The notes below the pieces were generated by a model. It worked only from the letters and a program-made list of their open reading frames with translations. It was not told the origin of the DNA and did no database searches. A stretch of DNA of 64,000 bases, taken from a virus. The translations under genes and the position numbers were made by a program. The stretch lies in the IMG/VR virus record IMGVR_UViG_3300011115_000650; one strand, 5' to 3'. Below are positions 9,345-62,281 of the stretch, piece after piece (the stretch's first letter is position 1; every line of letters starts with the position of its first letter).

Positions 9345-9350
9345 GATATG

Positions 9351-9440
9351 TAGTCAGGACAGGATTCGAACCTGTTAGGAGTTATTGACTATTACCTCCG
9401 CCGCTCACTCGGTGCGTCTAACCAATTCCGCCACCTGACT
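9351..9440 (-). ncRNA. tRNA-like RNA (Leu-type scaffold, non-canonical anticodon arm)
   Basis: Acceptor AGTCAGG/CCTGACT+A, D arm GGCGGAATTGGTTAGACGC, T arm ACAGG-TTCGAAT-CCTGT; no 5-bp/7-nt anticodon stem-loop. Confidence 0.7.
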
Positions 9441-26722: not shown

Positions 26723-27898
26723 TTAAAGTAGCTGATTAGTATAGTAAGGTGAGTCTAATCTGATAAGTTCTTTTTCATGAGTCTTTAAATTATTAACTGT
26801 TACTCTAAAAATATCTAATTCGAATTCTCCAACCTCTCCTGATTCTTTTAGTATGTCTGGTAATTGCTGTAACATGTTAAACGAATTGTTAGTCAGAGAC
26901 ATAGCATCAAAATCAATCAAGATATAGTTTTGCTTCTCATTACCGTACGGTCTAATACGTTCCCTTAGGTTGAATTTTGTATTGGGCTGTTCTTTATTTA
27001 TATAGTCCTTATAATCACAATCTACATAAATTGTTGAACACCAAGGTTCAAGTACTTCTAATAGGTGTAGGTTACAGTTCCTAACCACAAAGCCGATATC
27101 GTACTTAGAAGGTATGATCGGATATTGGTAATCGTCGTTCTTAATCCAACTACCCCATTTACGCAAATAATTTCTACCTGCTTTAGCAGATACTACTTTA
27201 AAGTAATCGTCATCTTTACCCACTTGATCGTTCCATCTATGACCTCTGCAGGTTAGGTGGTAGACAAATGCATCTCTACTCTGGATTAATTCATACCCAG
27301 CTAATATCCATCTCTGAAAGATATCTGAGTCTTCATACGGGAATGGGGCAAACAAAGGATCATGTCCTCTTATAGCTTGAAAGTCTTCTTTGTAGAGTAT
27401 CCAGGGAGCAAACATTCCCTTAGTTGTTTTATCTTTTTCGTAACCGGCAATTGTATCTACATACTCTTCAAACATCTCTATATTCAAAGTATCGAAGTCT
27501 TGACCGAAATCTTTTACGATCTTCTCTTTACCTTCAGGGTGTAAAGGAGGTTCGATTCTAGTACCACAAACAACTGTACCCGGTTTTAGATGCTTAACCA
27601 TATTCTGAATATAGTTAGGGCCTAGAATCATATCAGCATGTAAGATACCAACTACATCGTTAGTAGCTTCTCTGATTCCAATATCGTATAAGATAGTATG
27701 ACCTACTCGAGTACTCCATCTCAAGTGTAGAACCTTGTCATCTGATTTAGCAATTTGCTGCATCCACTCCCAAGTACCGTCTGTGGACGCATCGTCTAAT
27801 AAAACAATTTCAGCTTCAGAGGCATGTTTCTTTATTGAAGCGTAGACGTTCTTAAGATGGTTAATGTTGTTATAACTCGGTATTATAAATGATATCAT
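26723..27898 (-). CDS. GT2-family glycosyltransferase
   Basis: SFIIPSYN, DDASTDGT, HADM, YEDSD. Confidence 0.85.
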   Translation of the reverse strand: MISFIIPSYNNINHLKNVYASIKKHASEAEIVLLDDASTDGTWEWMQQIAKSDDKVLHLRWSTRVGHTILYDIGIREATNDVVGILHADMILGPNYIQNMVKHLKPGTVVCGTRIEPPLHPEGKEKIVKDFGQDFDTLNIEMFEEYVDTIAGYEKDKTTKGMFAPWILYKEDFQAIRGHDPLFAPFPYEDSDIFQRWILAGYELIQSRDAFVYHLTCRGHRWNDQVGKDDDYFKVVSAKAGRNYLRKWGSWIKNDDYQYPIIPSKYDIGFVVRNCNLHLLEVLEPWCSTIYVDCDYKDYINKEQPNTKFNLRERIRPYGNEKQNYILIDFDAMSLTNNSFNMLQQLPDILKESGEVGEFELDIFRVTVNNLKTHEKELIRLDSPYYTNQLL

Positions 27899-27899
27899 A

Positions 27900-28589
27900 T
27901 TATTGTTTTTGGATTGTGAACCCCCATATTACATTTGGAGTCCATGGATTATATACTTGGTAGTAATCCGGGCTATTAATCTCCGGGGTAACTATCTCCC
28001 AATTGGTGAAGTCTTCTGAGTAGTAAAACTTTTCGTCTGTAATCTCGTAACCATTCCTCTTACACTCAGCTTTTATCAAACCCTGTCTTTGGTGGTTGTA
28101 GTACCGTAAAAAAGGTTCCCCCGATGTTTCGTAGTTCATATACGGCCCTGCAGGTAGAGTGATCATTAGTTTAGAATCTAGATCTTTTAATAGTTTACAA
28201 GCTTTATTAATACCTCTAAGATCGTGGTTCCAGTAACACTTATCATCTTCTGCTAAACCATTTGCCATTCTATTACCAGCAAACCAAAATCCAAAATGCT
28301 CAAATACCGATACTGATATAACATAGTCGTATTTATTCGATTCATCAAATTCAATAAAGTCGCTCTGTATATGCTTCCAGTTAGTATTCTCTCTCAACCA
28401 GCATCCCGGTTCCGAAGGCATAATGTCTGTAGTAGATACATTGGTAAAACCTTTTTCGTGAATAGTCTCTGAGACTCCTTCTATCCCTCCCTGACACTCG
28501 CCAATAATTAAAACTGTCTTTGTAACATCAGTAAGCTGATCTGCAAAGTAGGGGACTTCTACAATCTTTGTACCTGATAATTTTATCAT
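27900..28589 (-). CDS. SAM-dependent methyltransferase-like (DUF268-like)
   Basis: VLIIG, YDYVISVSVFEHFG, ITLPAG. Confidence 0.6.
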   Translation of the reverse strand: MIKLSGTKIVEVPYFADQLTDVTKTVLIIGECQGGIEGVSETIHEKGFTNVSTTDIMPSEPGCWLRENTNWKHIQSDFIEFDESNKYDYVISVSVFEHFGFWFAGNRMANGLAEDDKCYWNHDLRGINKACKLLKDLDSKLMITLPAGPYMNYETSGEPFLRYYNHQRQGLIKAECKRNGYEITDEKFYYSEDFTNWEIVTPEINSPDYYQVYNPWTPNVIWGFTIQKQ

Positions 28590-29308
28590 ATTTTATAATT
28601 TTCTCCGTACTGTCTTAGCTGTAAATACAGTAACCCCAGTTCAGAATTATTGAAATAGTTATACATATTTGTCTCAGCTAGTCTACAAAACTCACTTACT
28701 CCTATATTAATTTTATTTTGTTTAAAGGTCTGAGAGTTTAGATGACATATAGTATTAGTGTCTGACACAGTGGTTTTAATATTATTCTGTTCTGTAATAC
28801 ACCCTGCGTAGAAATCTAACCCCCATCCATAGATCAACTCATCAGGGAAGTGTTGTATCTTTTCTAGAACATCTCTTCTTATTAACGGACATTGAAAATC
28901 AACCCACCTTACTTCACGCAAACCCTTCCCCCAGTTCCACATCTGCTTCCAATGACATTGTTCAACTGAAGCATTTATAACAGATGGTGAGTATACACCA
29001 GCATCTGCACGACGTGCTTCTTTTAAGGAGGTCGTAAGGAATGATGGTCCGTGAAAAATTAAATCGTTATTTAAAAAATATAGGTAGTCGTGATTTGTTG
29101 TAAGGAAATATTCTAACACAACATTAAATCCTCCACCAAAGTATATGTTATTATCTAACTGGTGTGTGGTTGACTTAGCTAAAGTTTCTTTGGATCCATT
29201 ATCGACAACCATTAATTCACATTGATTAAATAGTGTATCTTTTTTTAACTGGTCTACTAAATTATCTGTTAGATCTGGTAGATTGTGGTTTAGGGTTGCT
29301 ATTAACAT
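28586..29308 (-). CDS. GT2-like glycosyltransferase
   Basis: VVDNGS, FGGGFN, FLNNDL, GWGLD. Confidence 0.75.
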   Translation of the reverse strand: MLIATLNHNLPDLTDNLVDQLKKDTLFNQCELMVVDNGSKETLAKSTTHQLDNNIYFGGGFNVVLEYFLTTNHDYLYFLNNDLIFHGPSFLTTSLKEARRADAGVYSPSVINASVEQCHWKQMWNWGKGLREVRWVDFQCPLIRRDVLEKIQHFPDELIYGWGLDFYAGCITEQNNIKTTVSDTNTICHLNSQTFKQNKINIGVSEFCRLAETNMYNYFNNSELGLLYLQLRQYGENYKI

Positions 29309-29310
29309 GT

Positions 29311-30147
29311 TTAGGTATATGGTGGTGATAGTTGATCAAAAGTATAATTCGTTTTATGTAAATGTAGATATTCCTTATAAGATACTAAATTATTTTCATT
29401 TAACCAACTACTATTTAGTTCTGATATGCTTTGGCCGTTCATATCAATTCCATTTGATAAGTAAGGGTAGTAACCTAATCTAGAAACAACGAAGGGAAAT
29501 ACTCCTTCAAAATAGTACCTATCTAATTTAGAATTAAACCATACATCCGTGATAAGCTCTAGGAATTTTTTAACTACGATTCTTTTAACAGCATACAAGG
29601 TATGTATATAGAAAAAGTTAGCATGCGTATAAGGTAGTGCATCTGTTAGAGTATTTTGAAATAGCGGTATTTCAGTATCCTGTTCTTGATAGTTGTTATG
29701 TTTGTTATAAGCTATACCGAGCATTCCATATGATCCTATACCAGTATGCTTATGTAAAAAAGTTTCTACGTTTGACCTATCGGATAAAAAACTATTAATG
29801 TACCATTCCCGTAAATAGTCACTATGAGAATTTACACCACTTTTAGTATGTATAAACCAATAAGTATCGTAATCAGTATTAGATTGCTTAACTAATTTAA
29901 GAGCAAGTTGATACGCAGATGCATCACTAAGTGTGTATAAACTTTCGGATACTCTTGCTAATCCTTTTATATTTAGATTTGAATTATTTATAAGATCCTC
30001 TACAGCTTGTGTAGAATTTGGATTAATGCCTACGTAAATATCACAATCTGAGAAGTCTTTCTTAAACTCGTCTAAGAAGTTTTGTAATACGAATAACCTA
30101 TCATCCGATAAGATAGTGCAGGCGAATATAACACAGCTCTGTTTCAT
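29311..30147 (-). CDS. RgpF-like glycosyltransferase
   Basis: WFIHTKS...REW, RYYFE. Confidence 0.5.
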   Translation of the reverse strand: MKQSCVIFACTILSDDRLFVLQNFLDEFKKDFSDCDIYVGINPNSTQAVEDLINNSNLNIKGLARVSESLYTLSDASAYQLALKLVKQSNTDYDTYWFIHTKSGVNSHSDYLREWYINSFLSDRSNVETFLHKHTGIGSYGMLGIAYNKHNNYQEQDTEIPLFQNTLTDALPYTHANFFYIHTLYAVKRIVVKKFLELITDVWFNSKLDRYYFEGVFPFVVSRLGYYPYLSNGIDMNGQSISELNSSWLNENNLVSYKEYLHLHKTNYTFDQLSPPYT

Positions 30148-30148
30148 T

Positions 30149-30763
30149 TTACTTCTTTGTTATAAATGCTATTGGGGATACGTTACCTTGTTCAACATTC
30201 ACAGTTTTAATATTTTGAAGCAGGTAGTTAATTTCTTCCTGAGTCATGCAAGTGCTTATTAATTCTCCTGTGCTGTTGTAATGGTGTAGCATTTGTAGTG
30301 TGTCAGTATCACCTGGTCTGGTATAGGCAGGGTTGCCTGATGTATGTAAATCTTCTACTACAAATATTCCGCCAGATTTTAAATACTTAAACATAGTTCC
30401 TAGAGTAATTTGTTGCTGATGCATCATATGCCCTCCATCGTCAATAATGATATCGAATTCCTTGTAAGATTTTTCTATAATAGCCTCTAAATCAGCTCTG
30501 ATAGATTGATCGCCTAGTAAGATTGTAGTATCTTTGAGTTTAATATGTGTTAGGTCTAATATATCTACTCCAACTAGGTTACCTACGTTAAAATAGTCTC
30601 TCCACATTCTAATACTCTCTCCTTGCCATAGTCCTATTTCTAGAAAGTTCTCTAGACTATCTCTATACTTACTGAAGTACTTTTCATAGATCTCTAAATA
30701 GTTGTGGTAAACTGCTCCTTTGTCTGATTTATAGCCTAAGCTAATTTCTTCTAATGTTTTCAT
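30149..30763 (-). CDS. Sugar O-methyltransferase (MycE/TylE-like)
   Basis: SDK...HNY..IYE, LEIG...GES..MW, GDQS, FDIIIDDGGH, GGIFVVEDL. Confidence 0.75.
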   Translation of the reverse strand: MKTLEEISLGYKSDKGAVYHNYLEIYEKYFSKYRDSLENFLEIGLWQGESIRMWRDYFNVGNLVGVDILDLTHIKLKDTTILLGDQSIRADLEAIIEKSYKEFDIIIDDGGHMMHQQQITLGTMFKYLKSGGIFVVEDLHTSGNPAYTRPGDTDTLQMLHHYNSTGELISTCMTQEEINYLLQNIKTVNVEQGNVSPIAFITKK

Positions 30764-31545
30764 AAATTAAAGTTATAAATTGATTGTAAACCTATTCCTA
30801 GATATTGTTTAGATATTTTATCTGTAGTATAATTATAATGTTTATCAAAATCGTATTGATGTGTATAGTGGTAATTTTTAAATAAAGGGCCTTTTGGCAT
30901 TAGCCTAATTTCTTGAGTTGCTAACAACCACTCTCCATACCAGGTGAATTCAGATCCATTTACATTAATTAAGTCTACAAAAGTTAAGTTATTTGGAACT
31001 AGGTAGTTATCGTTAAGACTCTTCCAAACTTTACTTGACCACACTGTAGGACCTGGTCCAAAATCATATATTACTCCTTTCCTTCCAAATAGTTCCATTA
31101 TCTGCAATCTCTCTTTTGTGAATGATTCATAAGGATCAAACCCTAATGGATGTTTATCCATAAATTCAAAAAAGGACTTGTACTCATGACAGATTGTATA
31201 AGGAGTATCCTCATCAAACATAAAATCCGATATTGAGAACGGCTTAATAAAAAAGCAATCTGAATCGATACATAGGTAGTTTTCACATAAATCTAATTTC
31301 CAGAATTGACTCTTAACTATTTGCTGTCCTTTCCACCCTTGATTTGAGGTATCTATATCCTCATCTCTAAGTAACGTATAGTCTTTCTCTCCCAGTACTG
31401 TTCTAAATAATTCAAGATCTTTGGTAGGTACCGATATGTAGAAAGGAATCTGGTCTACGTTGTACCTGAGAATACTGTCTAGGAGCTGTTTTACCCTATC
31501 TACATCTTTGTCATAGGACTTGCAATAAAGTACTATCTTACTCAT
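30760..31545 (-). CDS. GT-A-fold nucleotide-sugar transferase-like (DUF6492-like)
   Basis: GWKGQQIVK, YLCIDSD (DxD), SEFTWYG. Confidence 0.55.
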   Translation of the reverse strand: MSKIVLYCKSYDKDVDRVKQLLDSILRYNVDQIPFYISVPTKDLELFRTVLGEKDYTLLRDEDIDTSNQGWKGQQIVKSQFWKLDLCENYLCIDSDCFFIKPFSISDFMFDEDTPYTICHEYKSFFEFMDKHPLGFDPYESFTKERLQIMELFGRKGVIYDFGPGPTVWSSKVWKSLNDNYLVPNNLTFVDLINVNGSEFTWYGEWLLATQEIRLMPKGPLFKNYHYTHQYDFDKHYNYTTDKISKQYLGIGLQSIYNFNL

Positions 31546-32170
31546 AGTATGTTATAATTTTGAATGATTCGACAAAACCTTTCCCTTTTTTCATACATTG
31601 AAAGTTTGTATGGAATCCATCTAGTACTTCACTATTAAAATAAGGTTTATCTATCTGTGATTTGAACCCCTGTAGCATACTCTTCTTCGTTTCGTAAACA
31701 TCGTCAAGAGATACGAATAAGTTTGGTTCCCAGGCATCTAATGTAGATGGCGATCTATATTGAATTATGCTGTAAGGAGTCGCTCTCGATAACGGGGCAG
31801 CTAATGAAGAAACCGACACATGTTCGTGGTGACTGTCAAACTCTGAGGTAATAAGTATACATTCATACTTATTTTTATAAGCGTAGGTGTCCTCAATGTA
31901 CTTTACCCACTCGTCAATGCCCCTAGTTCTAAATACAGGAACATCGCTAAAGTAGAGGCTGTAATTAGTTACTCCGCTTCTTGACCAAGCATCTTTAACT
32001 TCCTGATGACGTGCTTGACCTGTTGTAGTATCGCAGTAACCACCTTCTGTTAAACAAAGGATATCAAAATGTGTACCTGGGTGCTTTAGCACTGCACCTG
32101 CCATGCTATATTCGGCATCATCCGGGTGAGGAGCTAAACATAATGCTCTATTAAAATTTAAAAACTTCAT
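31538..32170 (-). CDS. PIG-L/LmbE-family N-deacetylase
   Basis: APHPDDAE, DSHHEH, FKSQ. Confidence 0.8.
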   Translation of the reverse strand: MKFLNFNRALCLAPHPDDAEYSMAGAVLKHPGTHFDILCLTEGGYCDTTTGQARHQEVKDAWSRSGVTNYSLYFSDVPVFRTRGIDEWVKYIEDTYAYKNKYECILITSEFDSHHEHVSVSSLAAPLSRATPYSIIQYRSPSTLDAWEPNLFVSLDDVYETKKSMLQGFKSQIDKPYFNSEVLDGFHTNFQCMKKGKGFVESFKIITYYE

Positions 32171-33018
32171 TATTTTCTTTTTAAGTTAAATAAAAATCCA
32201 TGTGGTGCAAATAACCTTATACCGTATCTTCTTAGAAAATCTCTAAAAGCATCTGAGACTGTATCGTGTTCTCCTGTATAGGTGATTTTTTCCACGTTAA
32301 TAGTTAGCTCATTTACTTTAATAAAAGGGTACTCCATTTCAAAGGTAAAATTCTCAACCTTGTAGTAAGAAATTAACTTTATAAATTCTTTTTTAATTGT
32401 ATCAAATATACTGTGTTTGTCTTCTAGGGAAGGTTCTTCAACCATTTTAACTAGCTTTGCAGGAGCACCGACATAGATGCCTTTAGGTGTTGTTAGAGAC
32501 TTAGTTACGGTAGCTTGAGCGCCAATGACTACATTATCTGTAATATCTACTCCACTCATAATAACTGTCTTCCATCCTACAATAACATTGTTACCTATTG
32601 TAACTCCTTGAAATAATCTAGGGTAACCTTCTAAGACGGATGCCCAAAAGCCATGTGTAATAATATCTACATCGTGAGATAGTCCTACATCGTCTCCAAT
32701 TGTGACTGGACAAGCTAGATTAATATGTCCTGTGTGACATACCACTCTATTACCTATTTTTAATTTAGCGTCAGGAAATCCTGCTGCTCCTCCTCCGATA
32801 AACATTCCTCTCGAGTCGGTCGGAACATTAAAGAAATAATCTCCGATAATAATCTCTTCAGCATTAGCTCTAAATCGATCTCCTACTACACTATTAGCTC
32901 CTATTTGAAACTTACCTCTAACTCTAATATCTATATCTCTACCGTATTTAAAATTATCTCCTAATATAATTTCACTACCTTCAATATGTACATTTTTTTC
33001 TTTATCTTCAAATACCAT
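32170..33018 (-). CDS. Hexapeptide-repeat (LbH) acyltransferase
   Basis: VTIGDDVGLS..V.IITH, VTIGNNVIVG, VVIGAQATVTKS, GAPAK. Confidence 0.85.
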   Translation of the reverse strand: MVFEDKEKNVHIEGSEIILGDNFKYGRDIDIRVRGKFQIGANSVVGDRFRANAEEIIIGDYFFNVPTDSRGMFIGGGAAGFPDAKLKIGNRVVCHTGHINLACPVTIGDDVGLSHDVDIITHGFWASVLEGYPRLFQGVTIGNNVIVGWKTVIMSGVDITDNVVIGAQATVTKSLTTPKGIYVGAPAKLVKMVEEPSLEDKHSIFDTIKKEFIKLISYYKVENFTFEMEYPFIKVNELTINVEKITYTGEHDTVSDAFRDFLRRYGIRLFAPHGFLFNLKRK

Positions 33019-33665
33019 TATATAATCCCTCCACTTATGTTAATATTCTGTCCAGTAATATACGAAGTTTTTATCAAATAATCAACTGTATTATAAAGCT
33101 CTTGAATACTTCCCCATCTTTTTGCTGGGATATTATTTTTGATAGTCTCTCTAAAAGACTCTGGAATTTTATAGGTCAGTCCTCCATCAAAGTATCCTAA
33201 CTGTAAACTATTACAAGTTACATTCTTTCCTATATTTTCTAATGCAACTGTTTTTGTAAAACTGTCTACAAATCCTTTACACCCTGAATATATACTTGTG
33301 CTTATAACTGGATGGTCTGCTAGTACTGATGAGAGTAATACAATTCTTCCATACTGTTTCTCTCTCATTTGAGGTAATGCACAAGAGGTTACGTTTATAG
33401 TTCCTTTGATATTAATATCAATTTGTTTTAGTACCTCAGAGTAACTATCTTCTGTATACTTATGTAAGAAACTATCGTAGTTATATCCACTTAAGTTAAT
33501 TAGTATATCAACTTCGTTCGTATTAAAAAATGACTGTACAGCAGCGTAATTAGTTACGTCTACATCTTTAGAACCTACTGCAATTATGCTATAGTGTTCT
33601 TTTAATAAGGGGACTAGTTGACTTCCTAACCCTCCTGTTCCTCCAAATAGTGTTATCGTTTTCAT
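33018..33665 (-). CDS. FabG-like short-chain dehydrogenase/reductase
   Basis: GGTGGLG, GRIVLLSS, YSGCK (YxxxK), IPAKRWG, YITGQNINISGG. Confidence 0.8.
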   Translation of the reverse strand: MKTITLFGGTGGLGSQLVPLLKEHYSIIAVGSKDVDVTNYAAVQSFFNTNEVDILINLSGYNYDSFLHKYTEDSYSEVLKQIDINIKGTINVTSCALPQMREKQYGRIVLLSSVLADHPVISTSIYSGCKGFVDSFTKTVALENIGKNVTCNSLQLGYFDGGLTYKIPESFRETIKNNIPAKRWGSIQELYNTVDYLIKTSYITGQNINISGGII

Positions 33666-34348
33666 TTTATTTCAATTTTGCTAGACCAGTTACTACTCTC
33701 CCTATTCATATGTTGTATGTAGTGCTTCTCATCTTCTGGAAGATTTTCTGGATCATAGTAGAAAGGAGCATGTTTTACTATGTAAGGAGTTCCTACTCTT
33801 AATGTATCGTTACTCCAATCTGGCATAGTACCCGGTGCATGAACTGCAAATGTGGTATCTATAGGATGTGGATATAACCATATATCTCCATCTAATATAC
33901 CATTTGTCCAGTAATCAGATTCGTATCCGTGCACCCATTTGTTAAGTGGGTAGTTTAGATCAATATCATCTATCCTGATTGACATGCCTACTTTAGACTT
34001 ACTGTACTTAGTAGCATAGTTAATTAAATCTCCAATAAAGTTATCAGGTACTTGTTCCTCAGGAATTATATCACTGTCATTAAACACATACCAGTTCGAT
34101 ATTAGTTTTATAAATTTTGGATGGCCTGCCTGTACTAGTTGCAAAAAAGCTTTACTACTATTCGGAACGATATCGTTAACAAAGACATCGACTCCTGATA
34201 TTTTATACCAGTCTAATAACGGCTGATATGTAGATTGATTATCTATGATTACTATGTTGGTATAACCTTTTTTCTGTAGAATCTTCACCTGTTCTACTAG
34301 TGGATGTAACCTATCTCTGTTTAAAATGACTATTGGTGTATGTTTCAT
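33662..34348 (-). CDS. GT2-like glycosyltransferase
   Basis: IVILNRDR, IIDNQST, FNDSD, IDTTFA. Confidence 0.65.
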   Translation of the reverse strand: MKHTPIVILNRDRLHPLVEQVKILQKKGYTNIVIIDNQSTYQPLLDWYKISGVDVFVNDIVPNSSKAFLQLVQAGHPKFIKLISNWYVFNDSDIIPEEQVPDNFIGDLINYATKYSKSKVGMSIRIDDIDLNYPLNKWVHGYESDYWTNGILDGDIWLYPHPIDTTFAVHAPGTMPDWSNDTLRVGTPYIVKHAPFYYDPENLPEDEKHYIQHMNRESSNWSSKIEIK

Positions 34349-34354
34349 ATTAAT

Positions 34355-35293
34355 TTATTTTTTCCATTTAATAAGACCAGCTCCCCAGGTCCATCCTGAT
34401 CCAATTGATGCTAGTAACACTGTATCTCCATCTACTACTTTTCCTGACTTAACTAATGTATCTAATGCAATTGGAATAGACGCGGCAGCTGTATTAGCAT
34501 ACTTATCCATAACTGTAATTACTTTCTCAAAAGGAAGTCCTACTTTATCCGCAACAACTTCTAACATTTTTATCCCCGGTTGATGTGGAACTAAAAAAGC
34601 TACTTTGTCAATTGGTATGTTATTTGTTTGGAGTATATCGTTAATTGCAATTGGTAGATTATTGGTACCTGTTTCAAAAACTGCTTTACCATTCATTTTA
34701 AACTTACCTCCTATAGGAGTAGTAAAGGCTTCTTTACCTCTTCCATCTGAATAGATCTTTGTAGTTATCCATCCTTCATCTGATTTAGATAATACAACTG
34801 CTCCAGCTCCGTCTCCAAAGTATACACAATCCCTACTCTCCTTATTTGTAATTTTAGAATACGTTTCAGAAGCTATGAGTAAGATATTTCTATATGCTCC
34901 AGCTTCTATGAGAGGAGTTGCTATATTTAATCCATATAAAAACCCTGAGCATACTGCATTAACATCGAAACTTGGACAGCTTACTTCTAACTTCTCTGCT
35001 ACAATACAAGCAGTCGATGGAGATATTCTATCTGGACTCGAAGTAGCTATTATCATAAGATCTATTTCATTCTTACCTAATCCTGAGTCTTCAATAGCTT
35101 TTAGAGCTGCTTTATAAGCTAAATCAGACGTTAGTTCGTTATTTGCTGACCATCTCCTCTCCTTTATTCCTAAATGATTTTCTGTCCACTTTGCATTCGC
35201 TCCATACCAAGTTTCTAACATTTCATTAGTTACAATTGCATCAGGCAGGTATGAACCAATTCCAGCAATATTTACGTTATATTTTTTACTCAT
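34355..35293 (-). CDS. fabH: 3-oxoacyl-ACP synthase III (KAS III)
   Basis: GSYLP, GIKERR, catalytic C (AVCSGF), FGDGAGA, H (VPHQ), N (ANTAAAS), G.GWTWG. Confidence 0.9.
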   Translation of the reverse strand: MSKKYNVNIAGIGSYLPDAIVTNEMLETWYGANAKWTENHLGIKERRWSANNELTSDLAYKAALKAIEDSGLGKNEIDLMIIATSSPDRISPSTACIVAEKLEVSCPSFDVNAVCSGFLYGLNIATPLIEAGAYRNILLIASETYSKITNKESRDCVYFGDGAGAVVLSKSDEGWITTKIYSDGRGKEAFTTPIGGKFKMNGKAVFETGTNNLPIAINDILQTNNIPIDKVAFLVPHQPGIKMLEVVADKVGLPFEKVITVMDKYANTAAASIPIALDTLVKSGKVVDGDTVLLASIGSGWTWGAGLIKWKK

Positions 35294-35294
35294 A

Positions 35295-36146
35295 TTAATA
35301 CTGTGCTATCATTCCGTATTCATCAAATATAGGCATTTTCCCCCATTTCTCCAACCATTTAGTAGTATTTTTTTCTTCTGCTTTTTTTTGTCTTTGAGAT
35401 GATTGACCTCCATTTTCTTCTAATCTATGAGAACCTCTTGCTCCAAAGTGCCATACTATAGAACTAAGTGGTAGTACAAACCTAACCCCATGCTGTAACA
35501 TTCTTAAAAATAAATCCATATCGTCCCAAGACGTCGGAGCAAATCTAGGATCGTTACCTCCTACTTCATTCCACACAGACTTTTTAACCAGTCCTGATAC
35601 TCCTTCTCCTTTTGGAATTTCAAAGTATTCATTTATCTCTTTAAATTCTTCGATCCAATTCTCAAATGCTTGAGCTAAAAAGCTATCATGATAACATCCG
35701 AAAATATCTTTGCTTACTATAGTGGTTCCCGGTCTCTGAGGAGATCCAAACATATCCGGTTCTATTCTATATGAATTAACCCATAACTTTTCTTCTGGAT
35801 ATGCTTGATGTATCTTTAGCAATTCAATATCCCAGTCCTTAGTGACATAAAAATCTGAATGAAGAAAATTAATATATTCGGTCTCTACTCTTTCAGCACA
35901 GAAATTCATTCCCCCTCCAATTCCTTTCGGTAAATCTGTATGAATATCTATATAATGTGTGATATTGTAGGCTTTTGCATTTTCTACTAACCATTCATTC
36001 GTACCATCAGTACAATTTTCAGCATGTATAATAAAAGAAGCGTCTTTAAAGTAGCTGTTCTTTCTTACCGACTCTACTGCTAATTTTAGATACGGTAGGT
36101 TATTATATGTTGATATACAATGTGTTACCGGGTTAGAAGGTACCAT
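35295..36146 (-). CDS. GT2-family glycosyltransferase
   Basis: ISTYN, CTDGT, HSD, WDDMD; paralogous to 26723. Confidence 0.8.
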   Translation of the reverse strand: MVPSNPVTHCISTYNNLPYLKLAVESVRKNSYFKDASFIIHAENCTDGTNEWLVENAKAYNITHYIDIHTDLPKGIGGGMNFCAERVETEYINFLHSDFYVTKDWDIELLKIHQAYPEEKLWVNSYRIEPDMFGSPQRPGTTIVSKDIFGCYHDSFLAQAFENWIEEFKEINEYFEIPKGEGVSGLVKKSVWNEVGGNDPRFAPTSWDDMDLFLRMLQHGVRFVLPLSSIVWHFGARGSHRLEENGGQSSQRQKKAEEKNTTKWLEKWGKMPIFDEYGMIAQY

Positions 36147-36768
36147 AATAGTTATTTTGTTTTTCTTGTCTTTGAATTGTCTTAGGATGAATTAAATCTA
36201 ATCCATGATAGGTTGGAAATACTTCTCCTAATAGTAACTCAGTAGATTGTAATCTCTCATGCACCCTACCATACCATTGAATATCTTTCCTATTCTTACA
36301 TAACCTGGTTTGATAGTCTGGATAGTTGATCCAGTTTTTATCGTTTAGATTCCATCCCCATTTCTTAATATGTTCATGAGTTATACCTTCTACTGTATTG
36401 ATTCTTGGTATCAAGAATACATCGTGGTTAGGATTAAGGTCTAAGATCTCAGGAAGATTCCCTAGTAAGTCTTTTCCTAAATACTCATCAGCATCTATGA
36501 AAAAGATATAATCCCTTGTACAATGATTCTTTAGATTGTTTTTAAATGTAGCAAAGTCTCCATTTAGTCCAAAGTATATTCTATGGTATTCGTATTTACT
36601 ACCTACGTTGTATTTAACCGCTACCTCTTTTACTTCTTCGGTAGCAGTATTATCTAATTGAACTACTATTTCATCTTCGGGTCTAATATGTTCGTTTAAT
36701 TGGTCTAGTAGCCGTTCTAGTTCTTGATGTTCATTACAGGCCGTAATTGCATAACTGATTGATGGCAT
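36133..36768 (-). CDS. GT2-family glycosyltransferase
   Basis: ISYAITACNE, FIDADE, PDYQ.R, VHE. Confidence 0.85.
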   Translation of the reverse strand: MPSISYAITACNEHQELERLLDQLNEHIRPEDEIVVQLDNTATEEVKEVAVKYNVGSKYEYHRIYFGLNGDFATFKNNLKNHCTRDYIFFIDADEYLGKDLLGNLPEILDLNPNHDVFLIPRINTVEGITHEHIKKWGWNLNDKNWINYPDYQTRLCKNRKDIQWYGRVHERLQSTELLLGEVFPTYHGLDLIHPKTIQRQEKQNNYYGTF

Positions 36769-36771
36769 AGA

Positions 36772-37236
36772 TTACTTCTTTTTAGATTCTTGTACGTCAA
36801 AAAATCCAATATAGCCTAGAGCTTCTATGAAATCTTTACCGAAGAACTTCATCGTCGAAGCATCTGATTTAAACTTGATGCCTTTATTGGCTAGTTGTTT
36901 CTTTTCTTCTGTGGTTAGTTTTCTAACCTGTATACCACACCACTCTACTAATCCTGATTGAGGACTGATGCCTAAAAAGACTGTACCCTTCTCAGGGAGG
37001 TTAATTGTGTTGGGGTACCAGATCCTCCCCTCTTCATCGATATGTTTGATGTCTTTGTATAACTCCGGTAGAGTTTCTTCGTAAGCCTCTATATCAAATT
37101 CGTCTACAGTCTGAGCATCAGTGGTTGAACACCCACAGCTAAAACAGTAGTAGCTGAATAAGGTTTCGTTGAGGGGGGACTTATAACAAGCATCCCCCTG
37201 GCATTTTGGACATAATATTAATGTATCTTTTTCCAT
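36772..37236 (-). CDS. Zn-ribbon hypothetical protein
   Basis: CPKC...CFSCG. Confidence 0.55.
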   Translation of the reverse strand: MEKDTLILCPKCQGDACYKSPLNETLFSYYCFSCGCSTTDAQTVDEFDIEAYEETLPELYKDIKHIDEEGRIWYPNTINLPEKGTVFLGISPQSGLVEWCGIQVRKLTTEEKKQLANKGIKFKSDASTMKFFGKDFIEALGYIGFFDVQESKKK

Positions 37237-37237
37237 G

Positions 37238-38545
37238 TTAATCTATCTTTTTCAATTTTGGTAGTTCGATCTTCTTTAGAGTCGGTAGTTTTAAGATTAC
37301 AGGTTTAGTAAACTTCTCTTCTACGATCTTACCCAATACTTCGGTCATAGCCTCTAGAGAGAATTCAGTCTTGGCTTTGTGTGCCTGTCTTTTACCTGAG
37401 GTCTCAAACTTCTTATAATCATCAAATACCGTCTTCCACATTCCTTTTAGTGCTATGTCATCGACTTGGAACCAACTCGACTCCTTAATCAACATATTCG
37501 GTACTACAGAAGAAGGATGTAGTGGGTGTAGCTGGCCAGGCAATAAAAAGCTAAATTGCGGATCAAGGAAATCCAGCTGACCAGACCACCCTGAAGCGAT
37601 GACCAATTTCTTAGATTGTGTAAATTCTAATAATGGTCTTCCGTATCCCTCTCCTTTTGTAATAGATACCATCGCTCTTACCTTTGGATGATTATATAAA
37701 TCATTCATATCCTTATCATCCACCTCTCCATGTAGTACGTAGATTGAAGGTAGATCACCTTTAATAGACTTCCTGATGATGTCTATCTTTCTTAGTATCT
37801 CATCTCGGTCCATTATCGAAGCACCTGCTTGAGAGGTCTTTAGTACTAATGCCGGTCTAGATTTCTTATTCTTATATGCTTCCAGGAATGATTTAATCAT
37901 ATAGCCTACATTCTTTCTATCATGACCAATCTCTCCTTGCATCCAATGCCCTACGAATAGAAAGCAGAAATCCTCTTTTATATTATCTAATGTATGGACT
38001 AATTCTGTCTTTTCCAACTTTTCTTGATAGAAATATTTTGTTACGTCTAATCCTTCAAACAATACTTCAACCGGTTTCTCTAACTTAACCTGCTTTATAG
38101 GCTGGCCGTTCTGGTCCTGGATTGTAAAGTTAGCTTCTTGGAATACTTTTTGGGCATGCTTAGAAGATACTAGGGTTAGATTCATTCTATTTATACCCTC
38201 CACCCATGATGGGTCACAGATCGTAGTCTCAATACCTGCTGTCAGGCCTAGATTAAAGGTCTTACCTACGGGTTGGAATTCATTAGGTACAGTAATCTGT
38301 ATCCAATACTCAGGCTGTTTAGGTAATTGGTTACCTTGTAGGATTAGAGGTTGCATCCATCCCCATTCCTCTTTATTCTTTTCTATAAAATTCCATGGAG
38401 TCGCTCCCCATCTCTGAGATAGTATCTTAATCTCCCATTCCTCTTTCTTTAATGTGTAGAGTGCTTTAATGAAATCTCTACTACGTGCACCATACCCAGA
38501 ATAAGTATCTGGGCAGGCTGATATAACGCATAACGGTTTGTTCAT
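37238..38545 (-). CDS. GT4-like (GT-B) glycosyltransferase
   Basis: SGYG, DRKN, GEGYGRPLLE, SGQLDF. Confidence 0.85.
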   Translation of the reverse strand: MNKPLCVISACPDTYSGYGARSRDFIKALYTLKKEEWEIKILSQRWGATPWNFIEKNKEEWGWMQPLILQGNQLPKQPEYWIQITVPNEFQPVGKTFNLGLTAGIETTICDPSWVEGINRMNLTLVSSKHAQKVFQEANFTIQDQNGQPIKQVKLEKPVEVLFEGLDVTKYFYQEKLEKTELVHTLDNIKEDFCFLFVGHWMQGEIGHDRKNVGYMIKSFLEAYKNKKSRPALVLKTSQAGASIMDRDEILRKIDIIRKSIKGDLPSIYVLHGEVDDKDMNDLYNHPKVRAMVSITKGEGYGRPLLEFTQSKKLVIASGWSGQLDFLDPQFSFLLPGQLHPLHPSSVVPNMLIKESSWFQVDDIALKGMWKTVFDDYKKFETSGKRQAHKAKTEFSLEAMTEVLGKIVEEKFTKPVILKLPTLKKIELPKLKKID

Positions 38546-38688
38546 ATTTTTAATGTTTTTACTTTTATTAGATTGATGAGTTCTTCAAAGGTACCTACAG
38601 TTTCAACCTCTTCATCTTTTATTTCAATACCGTACTTAGATTCAATAAGCTGTAGTATTTCAATTTTGTATACTATATTCTCTTCCAT
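38542..38688 (-). CDS. 48-aa acyl-carrier-protein-like mini protein lacking the DSL serine (not in track)
   Basis: MEENIVYKIEILQLIESKYGIEIKDEEVETVGTFEELINLIK aligns to ACP helices II-IV; its stop overlaps the next ATG (ATGA). Confidence 0.65.
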   Translation of the reverse strand: MEENIVYKIEILQLIESKYGIEIKDEEVETVGTFEELINLIKVKTLKI

Positions 38689-38703
38689 ACCTATAGTAAT
38701 TAC

Positions 38704-40146
38704 CTAATAAGTTAGTTTGTGTCTGATTTGTTTTTTAGGTATATCTTTTACTTCGATGAATTGGAAGCTTGGACGAGGTTTAAACGTTGTAAATGTCTCT
38801 TCTAGAGTCTCGATAACATTCTCACACATATGAGGTGATGTCATCTTGGCTTCAGAGGACATAACCCATTCTCTCCCTTTCATTCCCTTTGATTCTCTAA
38901 TGCTTTTAGGTAGGTTGTACACTTGTTCTATTGCTTGAGCTACCTCTCTAAAATCACATCTATCATCGAAAATATAAGGTGTAGGTACCGAACCTACTAG
39001 TGATAGATTTGAAGGGAAGACCGGTACCGCCCACTCACCACACTTCTTATAAGTACCGAAGTGATTGGAACAAAAGTTTTCGTCGAAGTCTATCCAATTA
39101 CCCTCCTCATCTTCAAACCTCATCTGATCTTGCATACCACCGGTTACGTTACCGATGATCATAGTACCTGTGATTAGAGATTCGGTTAGAGATAATCCCC
39201 ATCCTTCATTCGAAGATATCAAAGCAGTAACATCAGCTAGATTGTATAGGTAGTTCATCTCCTGTACCCCGTACACCTTATCGGTTATTACAACGTTACA
39301 GAGTTCTGGATCACATAATAGGTCTTTGACTGCAAGTAGATCGGTTCCATTCTCGTCTACCGGTTGGGTGTGTAGTAGTAGGACACATTTCTTAGCCTTC
39401 TCCTCACCAATCTTTTCACAAAACTGTCTATAAGCTAGTATTAGATCGGAGGTAGATTTCCTACGTATGTTTCTTGCATTATAAAATACTACATACTCGT
39501 AATCCTTCTCTCCGAATACAGTCTTTTTGAAGGCCGTAAACCGGTCGTTTTGTTCCTTATCTGTCTTATCGATAGGATAGAAGTGTTTTGGATTAATACC
39601 ATGTGGTATATACCTCAATACCTTCCCCTCTTGTTTAGGTCCTAGGACTAGCTTATTAATGTTTAGGGTCTGTTTTGAAATCGCCATCAAAGCATCACAA
39701 GATTCATAGTAGGGTTCATTATAGAGAGGTGCTGGTAGATCATCCCAGATGTTTAGATAGATCATCGGGATCTTTCTTCTAATCTCATTCTCCATCTGAA
39801 ACAACCATATCCAGTATCTTGGATCGGTGAAGAACATAATAGCATCTGGTTTCTCTATATCTATCAATTGACGGATAACTTCTGGAGAACCATACCCATT
39901 GTGTGGATACATGATGATTGAAGAATCTTCGATGTCGTTATGACCATTAGTGTCTAGGGAGAGATCTAGTCTCTTACCATGCTCGGGGTGATTAATGCCC
40001 GCTCCTAGATTAACCCAATTAAATCGGTGTGAGGTTCCGACCACGATCTCTCTTGCCATGGTAGCGATTCCAGATTGCATTCTGATATCGTCAGATAGTA
40101 ATAAGATCTTCTTACGTTGTTGTTGAGGTATGTACCCTGCTTTCAT
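38704..40146 (-). CDS. GT4-like (GT-B) glycosyltransferase
   Basis: SGIATM, RNIRRK, NEGWGLSLTES, TGGMQDQ. Confidence 0.85.
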   Translation of the reverse strand: MKAGYIPQQQRKKILLLSDDIRMQSGIATMAREIVVGTSHRFNWVNLGAGINHPEHGKRLDLSLDTNGHNDIEDSSIIMYPHNGYGSPEVIRQLIDIEKPDAIMFFTDPRYWIWLFQMENEIRRKIPMIYLNIWDDLPAPLYNEPYYESCDALMAISKQTLNINKLVLGPKQEGKVLRYIPHGINPKHFYPIDKTDKEQNDRFTAFKKTVFGEKDYEYVVFYNARNIRRKSTSDLILAYRQFCEKIGEEKAKKCVLLLHTQPVDENGTDLLAVKDLLCDPELCNVVITDKVYGVQEMNYLYNLADVTALISSNEGWGLSLTESLITGTMIIGNVTGGMQDQMRFEDEEGNWIDFDENFCSNHFGTYKKCGEWAVPVFPSNLSLVGSVPTPYIFDDRCDFREVAQAIEQVYNLPKSIRESKGMKGREWVMSSEAKMTSPHMCENVIETLEETFTTFKPRPSFQFIEVKDIPKKQIRHKLTY

Positions 40147-44116: not shown

Positions 44117-44734
44117 CTACTTTACTTTTTTACCTCTTACCCATCCTTCAGGTACTGGATCATCTTTTGTTATCTTTCTAACCTCTACTCCATTTGTGAT
44201 GTATCTTACACCGTACTGAGAGTTTAACACTCCTTTCTGTTTTAAAGCGTTTGCTAATCCGATTTTCTTTTTCGTCTCTTCTCTATGCTTCCTACCTATC
44301 CAGTTTGGTACTGTAGGTTTACGAGTTCCACTTTCGTAAAGCTTTTTATTTCTTTCACTACATATTTTGGAAAACTTTTCTTTGAAGACCGGGTCTTTTA
44401 GTTTCTCTTTAAACCCTCGAGTAGCAGCTAAGTGTGCTCCACCTACACCTCCTGTTTTTAAATTCATACAGTTGAGATCTTTCATTAGATCGTCATTAAC
44501 AAGTTCTTTCTCTCTCTCAGCTAACTCCTCACGAGTGCTATAATACTCTAAAATTTCACATTTAAAATTAGATTTACCGTGCTTTCTAATAGCTCTTCTT
44601 AATCTTGTACCACTTCCAAGATAACCATCTTTTAAATTTGAAGTAGAATGCATTCCTACATAATACTCTCCGTTTAAAAGATTGGTTGTCTTGTAGATGA
44701 AGTGATGTTTTTTACTTTCATTGATGTTTGCCAT
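44117..44734 (-). CDS. GIY-YIG (Seg-like) homing endonuclease
   Basis: FIYKTTN..NG.YYVGMH...DGYLGSG, CMNLKTGG.GG, NUMOD3-like HREETKKKI; start MANINE follows a late-type motif. Confidence 0.85.
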   Translation of the reverse strand: MANINESKKHHFIYKTTNLLNGEYYVGMHSTSNLKDGYLGSGTRLRRAIRKHGKSNFKCEILEYYSTREELAEREKELVNDDLMKDLNCMNLKTGGVGGAHLAATRGFKEKLKDPVFKEKFSKICSERNKKLYESGTRKPTVPNWIGRKHREETKKKIGLANALKQKGVLNSQYGVRYITNGVEVRKITKDDPVPEGWVRGKKVK

Positions 44735-46117: not shown

Positions 46118-46120
46118 ATG

Positions 46121-46202
46121 TACCTCTGGTAGGACTCGAACCTACAATGTCTGTGACTCCTGATCCTAAATCAGGCGGCTATACCAATTCGCCTACAGAG
46201 GC
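46121..46202 (-). tRNA. tRNA-Leu (anticodon TAG)
   Basis: CCTGA-TTTAGGA-TCAGG, long variable arm, GTAGGTTCGAGTCCTAC. Confidence 0.85.
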
Positions 46203-46328
46203 AATTTACAACTTTTAACAGGTCAGTATGAGTTGCCAACATATCCAGTTTACGATCTGGCTCTCTAGTGTGCTTCGATATTGAGAGGCTGAGAGGAACT
46301 ACGACCTTGTGGCCTGCAAGGTACATCG

Positions 46329-46400
<72 letters not shown>

Positions 46401-46525
46401 ATCTAATAAGGCAACCTGCTATTTACTAAACCTTATAAAAGGCTTAGCTTTACCTCCTACCCTTGGTTAGCTACTCCAAAGTTTAGATATAGGATGCAGG
46501 TGGATCTGACTCCAGGTATAATGTG

Positions 46526-46600
46526 TACAGTATACGGGATTCGAACCCGTGATCTTTTCCGTGAAAGGGAAACGACTTAAGCCGACTTGTCCAATACTGC
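46526..46600 (-). tRNA. tRNA-Glu (TTC)
   Basis: TTTCC-CTTTCAC-GGAAA; acceptor GCAGTAT/ATACTGT. Confidence 0.85.
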
Positions 46601-46606
46601 ATTAGG

Positions 46607-46678
46607 AGCTATGAGCCATCCCGAGTAGGCGCCTCCGGTACTAAATGACCGGGTTCTTCCATGTTAAACTATCATAGC
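46607..46678 (-). ncRNA. Degenerate cloverleaf (tRNA-like)
   Basis: GCTATGA/TCATAGC stem, D-like arm, CCGGT-8nt-ACCGG arm, abnormal T arm. Confidence 0.4.
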
Positions 46679-46684
46679 CTGTTA

Positions 46685-46873
46685 TTAATACTTATTAGCA
46701 CTACCTACACATCTATTGAATGCACTCTCTGCTTCTGAGATATTACTGTAGGTATATTTTGGGTTGGTGTTATGTCCACTTACCGAGAAATTATTTAACT
46801 TCTTAGTAACCGGATTTACTTCCGCCCATAGATTGTGTCCGCTCTTTTTTAGGATTAGCACTTTGTTATTCAT
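46685..46873 (-). CDS. Hypothetical protein within the tRNA cluster
   Basis: Own promoter repeat at ~46892-46928. Confidence 0.55.
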   Translation of the reverse strand: MNNKVLILKKSGHNLWAEVNPVTKKLNNFSVSGHNTNPKYTYSNISEAESAFNRCVGSANKY

Positions 46874-46942
46874 GTTGTTTTCTTTTTATATAGTAAAGAT
46901 AAGTAATTTAATTCAATCGACCAACTTTATATTCTTGAATTG

Positions 46943-47024
46943 TTCCGCCGAGAGGACTCGAACCTCTGAACCCGTTAGGGAGGGGATTTACAGTCCCCTG
47001 CAATTGCCACTATGCGACGTCGGA
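46943..47024 (-). tRNA. tRNA-Tyr (GTA)
   Basis: GGGGA-CTGTAAA-TCCCC, long variable arm, one acceptor-stem mismatch. Confidence 0.8.
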
Positions 47025-47128
47025 ATTTTAATTTAAAAAACAATCTTATAAACCTCCTTTAAGGTGTCTTTCAGATACCCAGGCATGGAGCCAGGGCGTT
47101 GTTTGCCTCTGAACAGCTTTTTGTATTG

Positions 47129-47199
47129 TTACCGCAAATGGATTCGAACCAATACTGACAGAACCAAAAACTGGAGTGCTACCATTACACTATGCGGCA
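47129..47199 (-). tRNA. tRNA-Gln (TTG), with stem mismatches
   Basis: TGCCGCA/TGCGGTA acceptor, loop TTTTGGT, GGTTCGAATCC. Confidence 0.7.
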
Positions 47200-56104: not shown

Positions 56105-56929
56105 CTAATCTACAAACATCCAATTGTATTTATTTGAGTTGCATCTGTAGTTAACTAATCCTCTCGTAATACCAAAAGCTTTTGCTGCTTCCTGACCTGT
56201 TTGATAGAGAACACCATCAGCTTTTACTTTCTTGCTATTTGAAGGCTTGATTGTTCTAGCATTAGCGTACTCTCTAAGCTTCTGTTTAGTTTCTTCCGTA
56301 TGGGTCTTTCCGTAAAATGGATTGTTAGCTCCTGACCTATCTCTACATTTACCGCAAGCTTTAGACGTCGGATCTATTCTTGCTCCACAATCACAAAAGG
56401 TACGTCCTCCTTTCCAATTTGGATTATTATCACCTTCATAACTTCGACGATTATTCGTACACCTCTCGATCAACTCGGTTGGCTTTTGCTTGCCTTTCCA
56501 GTACCCTTCCTTTCCATACATTCCATTATTCTGTCCTCTAACCTTAGTAGACCTCTCCTCTCGCTCTTCTGCTGATAGAGAATCCCAATACTGCTTTGCT
56601 GTTATTGATTTCTTTTCAAGGTACTCCGGATCGGTGTAGTTGATAAAACTAGAGGTATCACCACCGGTTCCTCCTTCAGTTAGGTTGTATCCGTTTTCGA
56701 TAGCGTTCTTTTCTTTAATCCAGTAAACCTCTCTACTGTTAAGATCTTCCTTATCTATACACTCTTCTAAGATACACTTTGTAAAATTCTCTAGCCCATA
56801 CTTCTGTATAGCTGCTTTGATTAGCTTGCCACTACCAAAATACGAATCGAAGTTAGATCCGCTATACTGTCCAATGTACATTTTTCCATTGAGATTATTT
56901 TTAATCTCGTAGACTATAAATCTTTTCAT
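56105..56929 (-). CDS. GIY-YIG homing endonuclease with NUMOD3
   Basis: IVYEIKN..NGKMYIGQ, YFGSG, GYNLTEGG.GG, NPFYGKTHTEETKQKL. Confidence 0.85.
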   Translation of the reverse strand: MKRFIVYEIKNNLNGKMYIGQYSGSNFDSYFGSGKLIKAAIQKYGLENFTKCILEECIDKEDLNSREVYWIKEKNAIENGYNLTEGGTGGDTSSFINYTDPEYLEKKSITAKQYWDSLSAEEREERSTKVRGQNNGMYGKEGYWKGKQKPTELIERCTNNRRSYEGDNNPNWKGGRTFCDCGARIDPTSKACGKCRDRSGANNPFYGKTHTEETKQKLREYANARTIKPSNSKKVKADGVLYQTGQEAAKAFGITRGLVNYRCNSNKYNWMFVD

Positions 56930-61873: not shown

Positions 61874-61876
61874 ATG

Positions 61877-62281
61877 TTATAGTGTTGAATTTAATGCGGT
61901 TAGAGGTGTTTCAATATCATTCTCCGGTAATACTGGTGTCTCTATTAATAGTTGTTTAAGCGTCTCTTGTCTAGCTACGGGAGTGTCTACGATTCTAGAT
62001 AAGATTTCGGTTACTTTAGTGATGTAGTATTCTTGGTTATCAATACTTATACGCTGGCTACTCATCTTTGGTACTATAACCTTTACTCCTGGATAGAGTT
62101 TGGGTTCAGATACTAATTGACCGGTGTGCCAGTTAAAGGTACTGTCTACTGCTACTACTTCAGCTATCTCAGGTCTTTCCTTACCCATATCCGGGATTAT
62201 GATATTACCTGCCATCTGTTCTTGTTCTTCGATGGGTTTTAAGATTACATGTCCATTTAATGGATCTAGTGTTGATGTCAT
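61877..62281 (-). CDS. groES: Co-chaperonin GroES with a C-terminal extension
   Basis: PLNGHVIL...GNIIIPD..KERP..AEVVAV; adjacent to groEL. Confidence 0.85.
   Translation of the reverse strand: MTSTLDPLNGHVILKPIEEQEQMAGNIIIPDMGKERPEIAEVVAVDSTFNWHTGQLVSEPKLYPGVKVIVPKMSSQRISIDNQEYYITKVTEILSRIVDTPVARQETLKQLLIETPVLPENDIETPLTALNSTL

Follow-up and report, generated by a model that had tools for sequence, protein, structure and literature searches.

A serine-less half acyl carrier protein gained by a freshwater phage belongs to a conserved and so far phage-only family

The 64,000-nucleotide stretch of viral DNA in IMG/VR record IMGVR_UViG_3300011115_000650, which comes from a freshwater virome and is referred to as a whole as the window, carries a small open reading frame (ORF) whose product descends from the type II acyl carrier proteins (ACPs) and keeps their helices II, III and IV. 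It is near certain that this protein, here called mini-ACP, belongs to a conserved, phage-only family of truncated and serine-less proteins derived from ACP. The ORF is a genuine, expressed-type gene of this phage-specific 'half-ACP' family, whose members have about 45–50 residues, and in the window it is a recently acquired accessory gene, or moron, lodged exactly between two otherwise adjacent glycosyltransferase (GT) genes. We favor the view, at a probability of about 0.5, that mini-ACP is a cofactor-less, ACP-derived docking module acting as a decoy or regulatory subunit. As far as our searches show, the literature holds no prior description of a viral family that keeps the docking half of ACP without its cofactor site.

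Results

Mini-ACP retains the C-terminal half of acyl carrier proteins

The gene comprises 48 codons followed by TGA, and its translation begins MEENIVYKIEILQLIESKYGIEIKDEEVE. The original prediction, which was made from the nucleotide sequence without database searches, had described the ORF exactly and left unstated that it lies on the minus strand. The features of the gene that bear on its identity are as follows.

38542–38688, minus strand: mini-ACP gene, from the ORF and its translation; homology to ACP helices II–IV only.
38674–38676, minus strand: ATA codon of Ile5, counterpart of the phosphopantetheine-bearing Ser36 of E. coli AcpP, with N4-I5-V6 in place of D-S-L.
38632–38682, minus strand: helix 1 predicted by AlphaFold2 (residues 3–19), equivalent to the ACP recognition helix II and the most conserved part of the family (K8, E10, I11, E16, Y19).
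38599–38616, minus strand: predicted helix 2 (residues 25–30), equivalent to ACP helix III, with invariant D25 and E29; from AlphaFold2 and the alignment.
38551–38589, minus strand: predicted helix 3 (residues 34–46), equivalent to ACP helix IV, with a variable surface and a variable lysine-rich tail; from AlphaFold2 and the alignment.

Several lines of evidence connect the protein to ACP. A profile built from the family matched 56 entries among all PDB sequences, nearly all of them acyl carrier proteins and always on their C-terminal half; the best match (2lol_A, E 5.9e-5) aligns query residues 9–45 with ACP residues 44–80. PHROG 5934, annotated 'acyl carrier protein', was matched at E 1.4e-6. 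The Pfam PP-binding model (PF00550) scores mini-ACP at 15.5 bits, under the cut-off of 20.8, and aligns only over profile positions 35–67 of 67; across the family, 28 of 55 members match it at E<=1, with a best value of 0.0016. The homology covers the second half of helix II, helix III and helix IV. Thus the sequence comparisons support homology to the C-terminal half of ACP, and they do not support full membership of PF00550.

The predicted structure gives the same picture. An AlphaFold2 model with the family alignment as input (pLDDT 85.9) has three helices, and all of its top Foldseek matches are ACPs, which superpose through helices II–IV with a query-normalized TM score of 0.85 and a root-mean-square deviation of 0.6–1.3 A over 43–44 residues; so short a query yields poor E-values. 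VIA-align against representative structures returned 11 matches with Z>=5, all of them carrier proteins aligned over about their residues 34–81. The helix II–IV pattern that had been proposed from the sequence is thus borne out by the PDB profile, the PHROG match and the superposition of the model on PP-binding structures.

The register at the cofactor serine comes from a profile alignment to 1acp_A in which query residues 12–43 pair with chain residues 43–74, an offset of +31; AcpP residues are named at this offset on the textbook E. coli AcpP sequence. N4-I5-V6 then fall on D35-S36-L37, in agreement with the earlier suggestion that ENIV occupies the place of DSL, and the position of the cofactor serine is Ile5. 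In two alignments every family member shown has I, L or V at the position equivalent to Ser36, and the sole conserved serine, S17, pairs with AcpP E48. Helix I had also been noted as missing, and no N-terminal half turned up nearby: a hidden Markov model (HMM) built on the 11 closest full-length ACPs and searched against the six-frame translation of the window matched the mini-ACP ORF alone, at HMM positions 42–79, and found neither a helix I or DSL motif in any frame near the ORF nor a second ACP anywhere in the 64 kb.

A constrained family found so far only in phages

A word-indexed search recovered 54 clusters (at 90% identity) of proteins of 45–66 amino acids that are 70–94% identical to mini-ACP, P0001 at 94% being among the closest, and several members carry the JGI label 'acyl carrier protein'. 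A profile search of 1.84 billion representatives gave 76 matches, of which about 60 clusters (at 50% identity) are likewise proteins of 45–66 amino acids, some of them only about 45% identical. Full-length ACPs bearing DSL first appear in that search at E 1e-6 to 1e-3, and P0098, P0106 and P0111 are examples of the nearest such relatives. All of the short members start a few residues ahead of the conserved K8, and the N-terminus MEENI is itself conserved. Two members, P0077 and P0103, are extended at the N-terminus and still serine-less, and their starts may have been called too far upstream; P0081, P0100 and P0079 seem to be chimeric or spurious proteins.

The roughly 60 clusters all share the truncation, and the family is under purifying selection: 29 distinct coding sequences give a dN/dS of about 0.13 at a dS of about 1. 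The wide alignment shows K8, E10, I11, E16, Y19, I21, E22, I23, D25, E26, E27 and E29 as invariant or nearly so, all of them in the stretch from helix II to helix III, and the last helix conserves only L37 and K44 on an otherwise variable surface. Seven of these residues (E10, E16, E22, D25, E26, E27 and E29) correspond to AcpP E41, E47, E53, D56, E57, E58 and E60. The counterparts of AcpP D35, D38 and E48 are lost, being N4, Y7 and S17.

All members come from metagenomes, and the family is so far phage-only. No cellular homolog was found by a single peptide pattern in 185,579 prokaryotic species represented by one genome each, and about 50,000 GenBank phage records held no member, returning only distant full-length phage ACPs at E>=0.2. 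IMG/VR contained no exact match to the mini-ACP gene of the window, and PADLOC gave no match for mini-ACP or for p151, the gene that most often precedes it elsewhere (see below).

A recent insertion between two glycosyltransferase genes

Every long ORF of the window lies on the minus strand, and its GC content is 34.6%. The immediate surroundings of mini-ACP contain the following features.

38704–40146, minus strand: upstream flanking gene for a 480-amino-acid GT4-type glycosyltransferase, 62% identical to immuto gp181; outside the element.
38689–38706, minus strand: TAG of the upstream GT4 (38704–38706) and a 15-nucleotide spacer in the mini-ACP frame, from the sequence.
38547–38707, no strand assigned: inserted cassette of 161 nucleotides, missing in near-identical strains, which have 12 nucleotides there instead.
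38542–38545, minus strand: ATGA shared by the TGA of mini-ACP and the ATG of the downstream GT4, predicted from the sequence to give translational coupling.
37238–38545, minus strand: downstream flanking gene for a 435-amino-acid GT4-like glycosyltransferase, 53% identical to immuto gp180; outside the element.

The spacer at 38689–38703 reads as five in-frame codons, VITIG, which are followed by the ATG of mini-ACP. Both junctions are therefore as the original prediction had them: the ORF lies in frame five codons after the TAG of the preceding GT4, and its TGA overlaps the ATG of the next one.

The same two GT genes occur in the nearest isolate, Flavobacterium phage vB_FspM_immuto (immuto), where they lie 2 nucleotides apart, and immuto has no mini-ACP anywhere in its genome. 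None of the 80 IMG/VR loci with this GT pair has mini-ACP between the two genes (79 could be evaluated), and the GT genes lie from -8 to +23 nucleotides apart in 77 of the 79. Much closer relatives also lack it. The two GT proteins of the viral contig L076 share 98% identity with those of the window, and there the upstream gene ends in TAA and is followed by a 9-nucleotide spacer and the next ATG. A 19-kb contig from a 2017 freshwater metagenome (run X9), with flanks about 98% identical, joins 38546 to 38708 through 12 other bases. A sample from 2025 has the mini-ACP gene unchanged, and close relatives of the window appear in runs from 14 studies. The existence of near-identical strains without mini-ACP, together with the loci of the GT pair, indicates that the 161-nucleotide cassette is a recent gain and a presence/absence polymorphism at the level of strains. 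In another lineage an unrelated ORF of 56 codons (MDITESMNKIRDIKK...) occupies the same GT junction (L132:4425–4595); the junction tolerates small insertions and is a hotspot for small genes.

Other carrier loci and the p151 gene

Mini-ACP is carried at 40 IMG/VR loci, none of which has a GT4 or FabH neighbor. Directly upstream lies a conserved gene of 151 amino acids, p151, in 26 of the 40, its last 14–17 bases overlapping the start of mini-ACP; nrdB is the upstream neighbor in 8 and other genes in 6, and nrdA lies directly downstream in 20 loci. Further neighbors include a DnaB/gp41-type helicase, a 5'-3' exonuclease, gp32 and a T4-type portal. Five large carrier contigs, of which three have a completeness of at least 90%, each encode a single mini-ACP and lack both FabH and a full ACP.

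A separate scan for p151 found 28 loci (for example L013:5561–6016, with 27 others in L048–L075), at 26 of which an intact mini-ACP follows, including one behind a p151 of only 56% identity (L074). At L060:2940–3010 the mini-ACP behind p151 is broken, reading MGEENIISKIEIRKLI and then a stop, and is the sole decayed copy seen; at L072 the p151 locus is cut off by the contig edge. Apart from that cut locus, no p151 lacking a mini-ACP gene behind it was seen among the 28. The reverse does not hold, since mini-ACP often occurs without p151 (14 of the 40 loci and the window). The p151 sequence has no match in Pfam, PHROGs, PDB sequences or GenBank phages, immuto included, and none in the 64 kb of the window. 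Its predicted structure (pLDDT 85.9) matches GNAT acyltransferases only, with a Foldseek E-value of about 4e-3 and probability of 0.97–0.99 and a VIA Z of 7–7.8 over 105–118 residues. Together, p151 and mini-ACP may be a new two-gene module. A co-fold of p151 with its cognate mini-ACP scored 0.01, which is evidence neither way, and we have considered as a candidate idea that the N-terminal helix of p151 (MIKLTNLLKEIIDIY) serves as helix I in trans. One metagenomic protein of 141 amino acids, P0069, is an in-frame fusion of p151 residues 1–102 with mini-ACP residues 7–45 and represents either a deletion variant or an assembly artifact.

In T4-like freshwater contigs p151 usually lies between nrdB and nrdA. 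At L018:6154–8010 the p151–mini-ACP pair precedes a class II-like ribonucleotide reductase (RNR) with a B12-dependent RNR insertion domain in place of class I nrdA, and so the RNR neighborhood spans two classes of the enzyme. The nrdA gene downstream of mini-ACP is interrupted in some contigs (L027:1215–2324 and its equivalents in L021 and L026), and the ORF of 369 amino acids at L027:1215–2324 has a C-terminal intein splicing domain (Pfam PF14890, E 2e-5).

Some other genes of the window also have relatives in mini-ACP-bearing contigs. The products of ORFs 7751–8245, 44117–44734 and 56105–56929 are 27–52% identical to proteins whose genes adjoin RNR genes in mini-ACP-bearing T4-like contigs; on visual inspection they resemble GIY-YIG-type homing endonucleases, and they might carry, or mark, the exchange of genes among these phage groups. 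The genes at 60224–62281 encode GroEL-like (549 amino acids) and GroES-like (134 amino acids) proteins, as in immuto, and the GroEL is 48% identical to those encoded in the mini-ACP-bearing contigs L018 and L041.

Discussion

A docking module that would act by binding

The absence of a cofactor site means that mini-ACP cannot carry acyl groups, and its sequence predicts no modification by an AcpS/Sfp-type transferase. A mechanism based on binding only is probable. The acidic face of helices II and III is the surface that real ACPs use to dock on client enzymes. The helix II–loop–helix III part of it that mini-ACP retains would dock on basic patches of an ACP-recognizing protein, and mini-ACP, lacking a cofactor, would thereby occupy the ACP-binding site as a decoy or as a regulatory subunit. 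For most of the phages that carry it, the obvious client would be the GNAT-fold p151, whose gene overlaps the start of mini-ACP. The phage studied here has no p151 in the 64 kb, and its mini-ACP would then engage an enzyme or regulator of the host that depends on ACP; a less likely client would be an acyl-sugar enzyme encoded by the phage itself. A host ACP-dependent client would account for the 14 loci, and the present one, at which mini-ACP stands without p151. The mACP of Plasmodium, which lacks the cofactor and works by binding Isd11-Nfs1, demonstrates that an ACP without the cofactor can function through binding alone (PMC8547962), and a 2026 preprint in which a full-length phage ACP is predicted to contact host FabZ shows that phage interference at ACP interfaces has already been considered. 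The earlier idea of a non-acylatable ACP mimic or adaptor therefore stands insofar as the protein is derived from ACP, has no canonical phosphopantetheine site and sensibly has a binding-only role; its other part, a role as adaptor for FabH, does not survive (see below).

Several observations weigh against a docking decoy. The aspartates D35 and D38, which lie near the serine and are contacted by many ACP clients, are replaced by N4 and Y7, and E48 by S17, so that mimicry of host AcpP would be imperfect. Without helix I the hydrophobic face of the predicted three-helix structure is bare, and mini-ACP might need a partner or form a dimer, and the monomer model may misrepresent its real state. 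The strong link to replication genes and to RNR genes of two classes is unexplained by an ACP decoy, and the binding partner itself is putative. Evidence for expression is thin: the metatranscriptome contigs are short, cover only 38456–38606 and 38695–38873, leaving the middle of the gene bare, and may reflect carry-over of DNA, so that they prove neither expression nor silence.

One extension of the decoy proposal addresses the RNR link, and we put it forward as a tentative possibility. Mini-ACP might dock on and block host proteins of lipid synthesis (for example fatty-acid or lipid A enzymes) or of the stringent response (for example a SpoT-like regulator), thereby redirecting carbon, ATP and NADPH to nucleotide synthesis. 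Redirection of this kind would explain the position of mini-ACP beside RNR genes in most phages.

A possible dedicated subunit of a GNAT-fold enzyme

A tentative alternative, which we consider possible, is that a GNAT-fold enzyme of the p151 type requires mini-ACP as its small subunit, regulator or antidote, in which case the partner here would be a p151-like protein or another GNAT or acyltransferase encoded outside the 64 kb, by a co-infecting phage or by the host. An intact, overlapping mini-ACP stands behind 26 of the 28 p151 loci, even where p151 identity has fallen to 56%, and the two genes move together into varied downstream contexts (portal, class I RNR, class II RNR and others). The GNAT fold predicted for p151 is also suggestive, as several GNAT-fold enzymes dock ACPs, including the acyl-homoserine lactone (AHL) synthases and toxin-activating acyltransferases, and the P0069 cluster is a natural fusion of the two proteins. 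This alternative has to contend with the 14 of 40 loci, and the window itself, in which mini-ACP occurs without p151, as well as with the absence of p151 matches from the window and from the GenBank phages, Pfam, PHROG and PDB sequences searched. Inspection of the p151 alignment by eye also reveals no clear canonical acetyl-CoA loop motif.

An unlikely adaptor role for the acyl-sugar module

A long glycan operon on the minus strand at 26723–40146 contains GT2 and GT4 genes, FabH (KAS III), an SDR and a hexapeptide acyltransferase and has no ACP of its own; presumably it depends on host acyl-ACP or acyl-CoA. The acyl-sugar genes are the following.

34355–35293, minus strand: FabH.
33018–33665, minus strand: SDR.
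32170–33018, minus strand: LbH acyltransferase.

Mini-ACP could be a dedicated adaptor for this module, for example tethering host acyl-ACP or gating its delivery, as had been suggested for FabH. Its place in the same minus-strand operon as the KAS III, SDR and hexapeptide acyltransferase genes would fit such a role, and since the window has no full ACP the module must deal with that of the host. Against this, the gene is absent from strains that are 98% identical and retain the glycan operon and from 79 other loci of the GT pair, the other carriers of mini-ACP have no FabH, and mini-ACP lies 3.2 kb from FabH, at a GT junction whose occupant in another lineage is a small, unrelated ORF. Sister strains have the module and lack mini-ACP, and elsewhere mini-ACP is present where FabH is missing; we therefore regard an adaptor role as unlikely.

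Read-through and decay

It had also been proposed that read-through of the TAG at 38704–38706 would make mini-ACP the C-terminal domain of a GT4–ACP fusion. The ORF is indeed in the GT4 frame, five sense codons past the TAG; however, chance alone would place it there in one frame of three, and an in-frame upstream gene is found in only 2 of the 40 related loci, both of one lineage and behind nrdB. The TAG is an ordinary stop that ends 15 of the 89 long ORFs of the window, and none of the six window tRNAs is a suppressor. In strains that lack mini-ACP this GT4 stops after the same residue, with TAA as its stop codon, the family keeps its own conserved ATG and MEENI N-terminus, and in this lineage the gene was inserted recently. 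The in-frame position behind the GT4 TAG is accidental, and a fusion protein is very improbable.

The C-terminus of the GT4 (…ENVIETLEETF…) was examined as a helix I that read-through would supply, and was rejected: immuto and the strains lacking mini-ACP have the same C-terminus. As to the tRNA genes, five lie at 46120–47199 (Leu-UAG, Met, Glu, Tyr and Gln) and a separate tRNA-Leu(GAG) at 9350–9440, all on the minus strand.

The idea that mini-ACP is a decaying full-length ACP, a unique degraded allele or a chance ORF without function, for which one might cite its mere 48 codons, its score below the Pfam threshold and the premature stop in the relative at L060, can be set aside as scarcely credible, because a dN/dS of about 0.13 over 29 distinct sequences at saturated synonymous sites, a truncation common to the whole family, start, length and residues kept across about 60 clusters at 50% identity, and the recent gain of the gene in this lineage all contradict it.

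Implications

ACP is among the most connected proteins in bacteria. If mini-ACP is a decoy it would represent a new way in which phages take over lipid metabolism and a natural 5-kDa inhibitor scaffold for the interfaces between ACP and its clients, which are antibacterial targets; if the protein that it engages belongs to the host, it would be the first viral inhibitor derived from one half of a carrier protein of its host. If it is instead a subunit of p151, the pair would be a new phage system adjoining ribonucleotide reductase. The 'acyl carrier protein' label on family members is misleading for the annotation of auxiliary metabolic genes (AMGs) in viromes. The presence/absence polymorphism between phages that are 98% identical provides a ready natural comparison.

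Comparison with known systems

Among the closest known systems are the type II ACPs themselves (AcpP, PF00550), including the phage proteins of PHROG 5934, such as those from Vibrio phage ICP1, Yersinia phage fHe-Yen9-04 and Serratia phage phiMAM1. Mini-ACP has the same three-helix arrangement and keeps the equivalents of the acidic E41, E47, E53, D56–E58 and E60, as well as an aromatic residue at F50. Unlike them, it has 48 residues and not about 75–85, lacks helix I and the long loop, and has Ile at Ser36 with N and Y at D35 and D38, and so is no carrier. In most of the phages that carry it, mini-ACP is also unlinked to fatty acid synthase (FAS), polyketide synthase (PKS) or FabH genes.

In its loss of function as a carrier mini-ACP resembles the mACP of Plasmodium falciparum, which has likewise lost the phosphopantetheine site and yet is kept by selection, and which stabilizes Isd11-Nfs1 purely by binding (PMC8547962). 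The two differ in that mACP has the full four-helix fold and a known LYR-protein partner, whereas mini-ACP is a three-helix fragment and no LYR-type partner was identified among its neighbors.

The p151–mini-ACP pair invites comparison with the GNATs that dock carrier proteins, namely the acyl-ACP-dependent AHL synthases, the toxin-activating acyltransferases and the GNAT loading domains of PKS, since in 26 of 40 loci mini-ACP overlaps the end of a gene for a GNAT-fold protein. In contrast to these enzymes, p151 matches no GNAT family in sequence and its ACP-like partner is cofactor-less. The pair does not occur in the window, where the gene upstream of mini-ACP is a GT4.

In its genetic behavior mini-ACP resembles the small 'moron' takeover proteins of phages, being tiny, acidic, present or absent between near-identical strains and found in several contexts that are unrelated, and like them it sits exactly at an intergenic junction and is coupled to the next gene. 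Most morons have no recognizable ancestry, whereas mini-ACP is clearly derived from a cellular cofactor protein, and its known descent from ACP therefore permits a testable guess at the class of its target.

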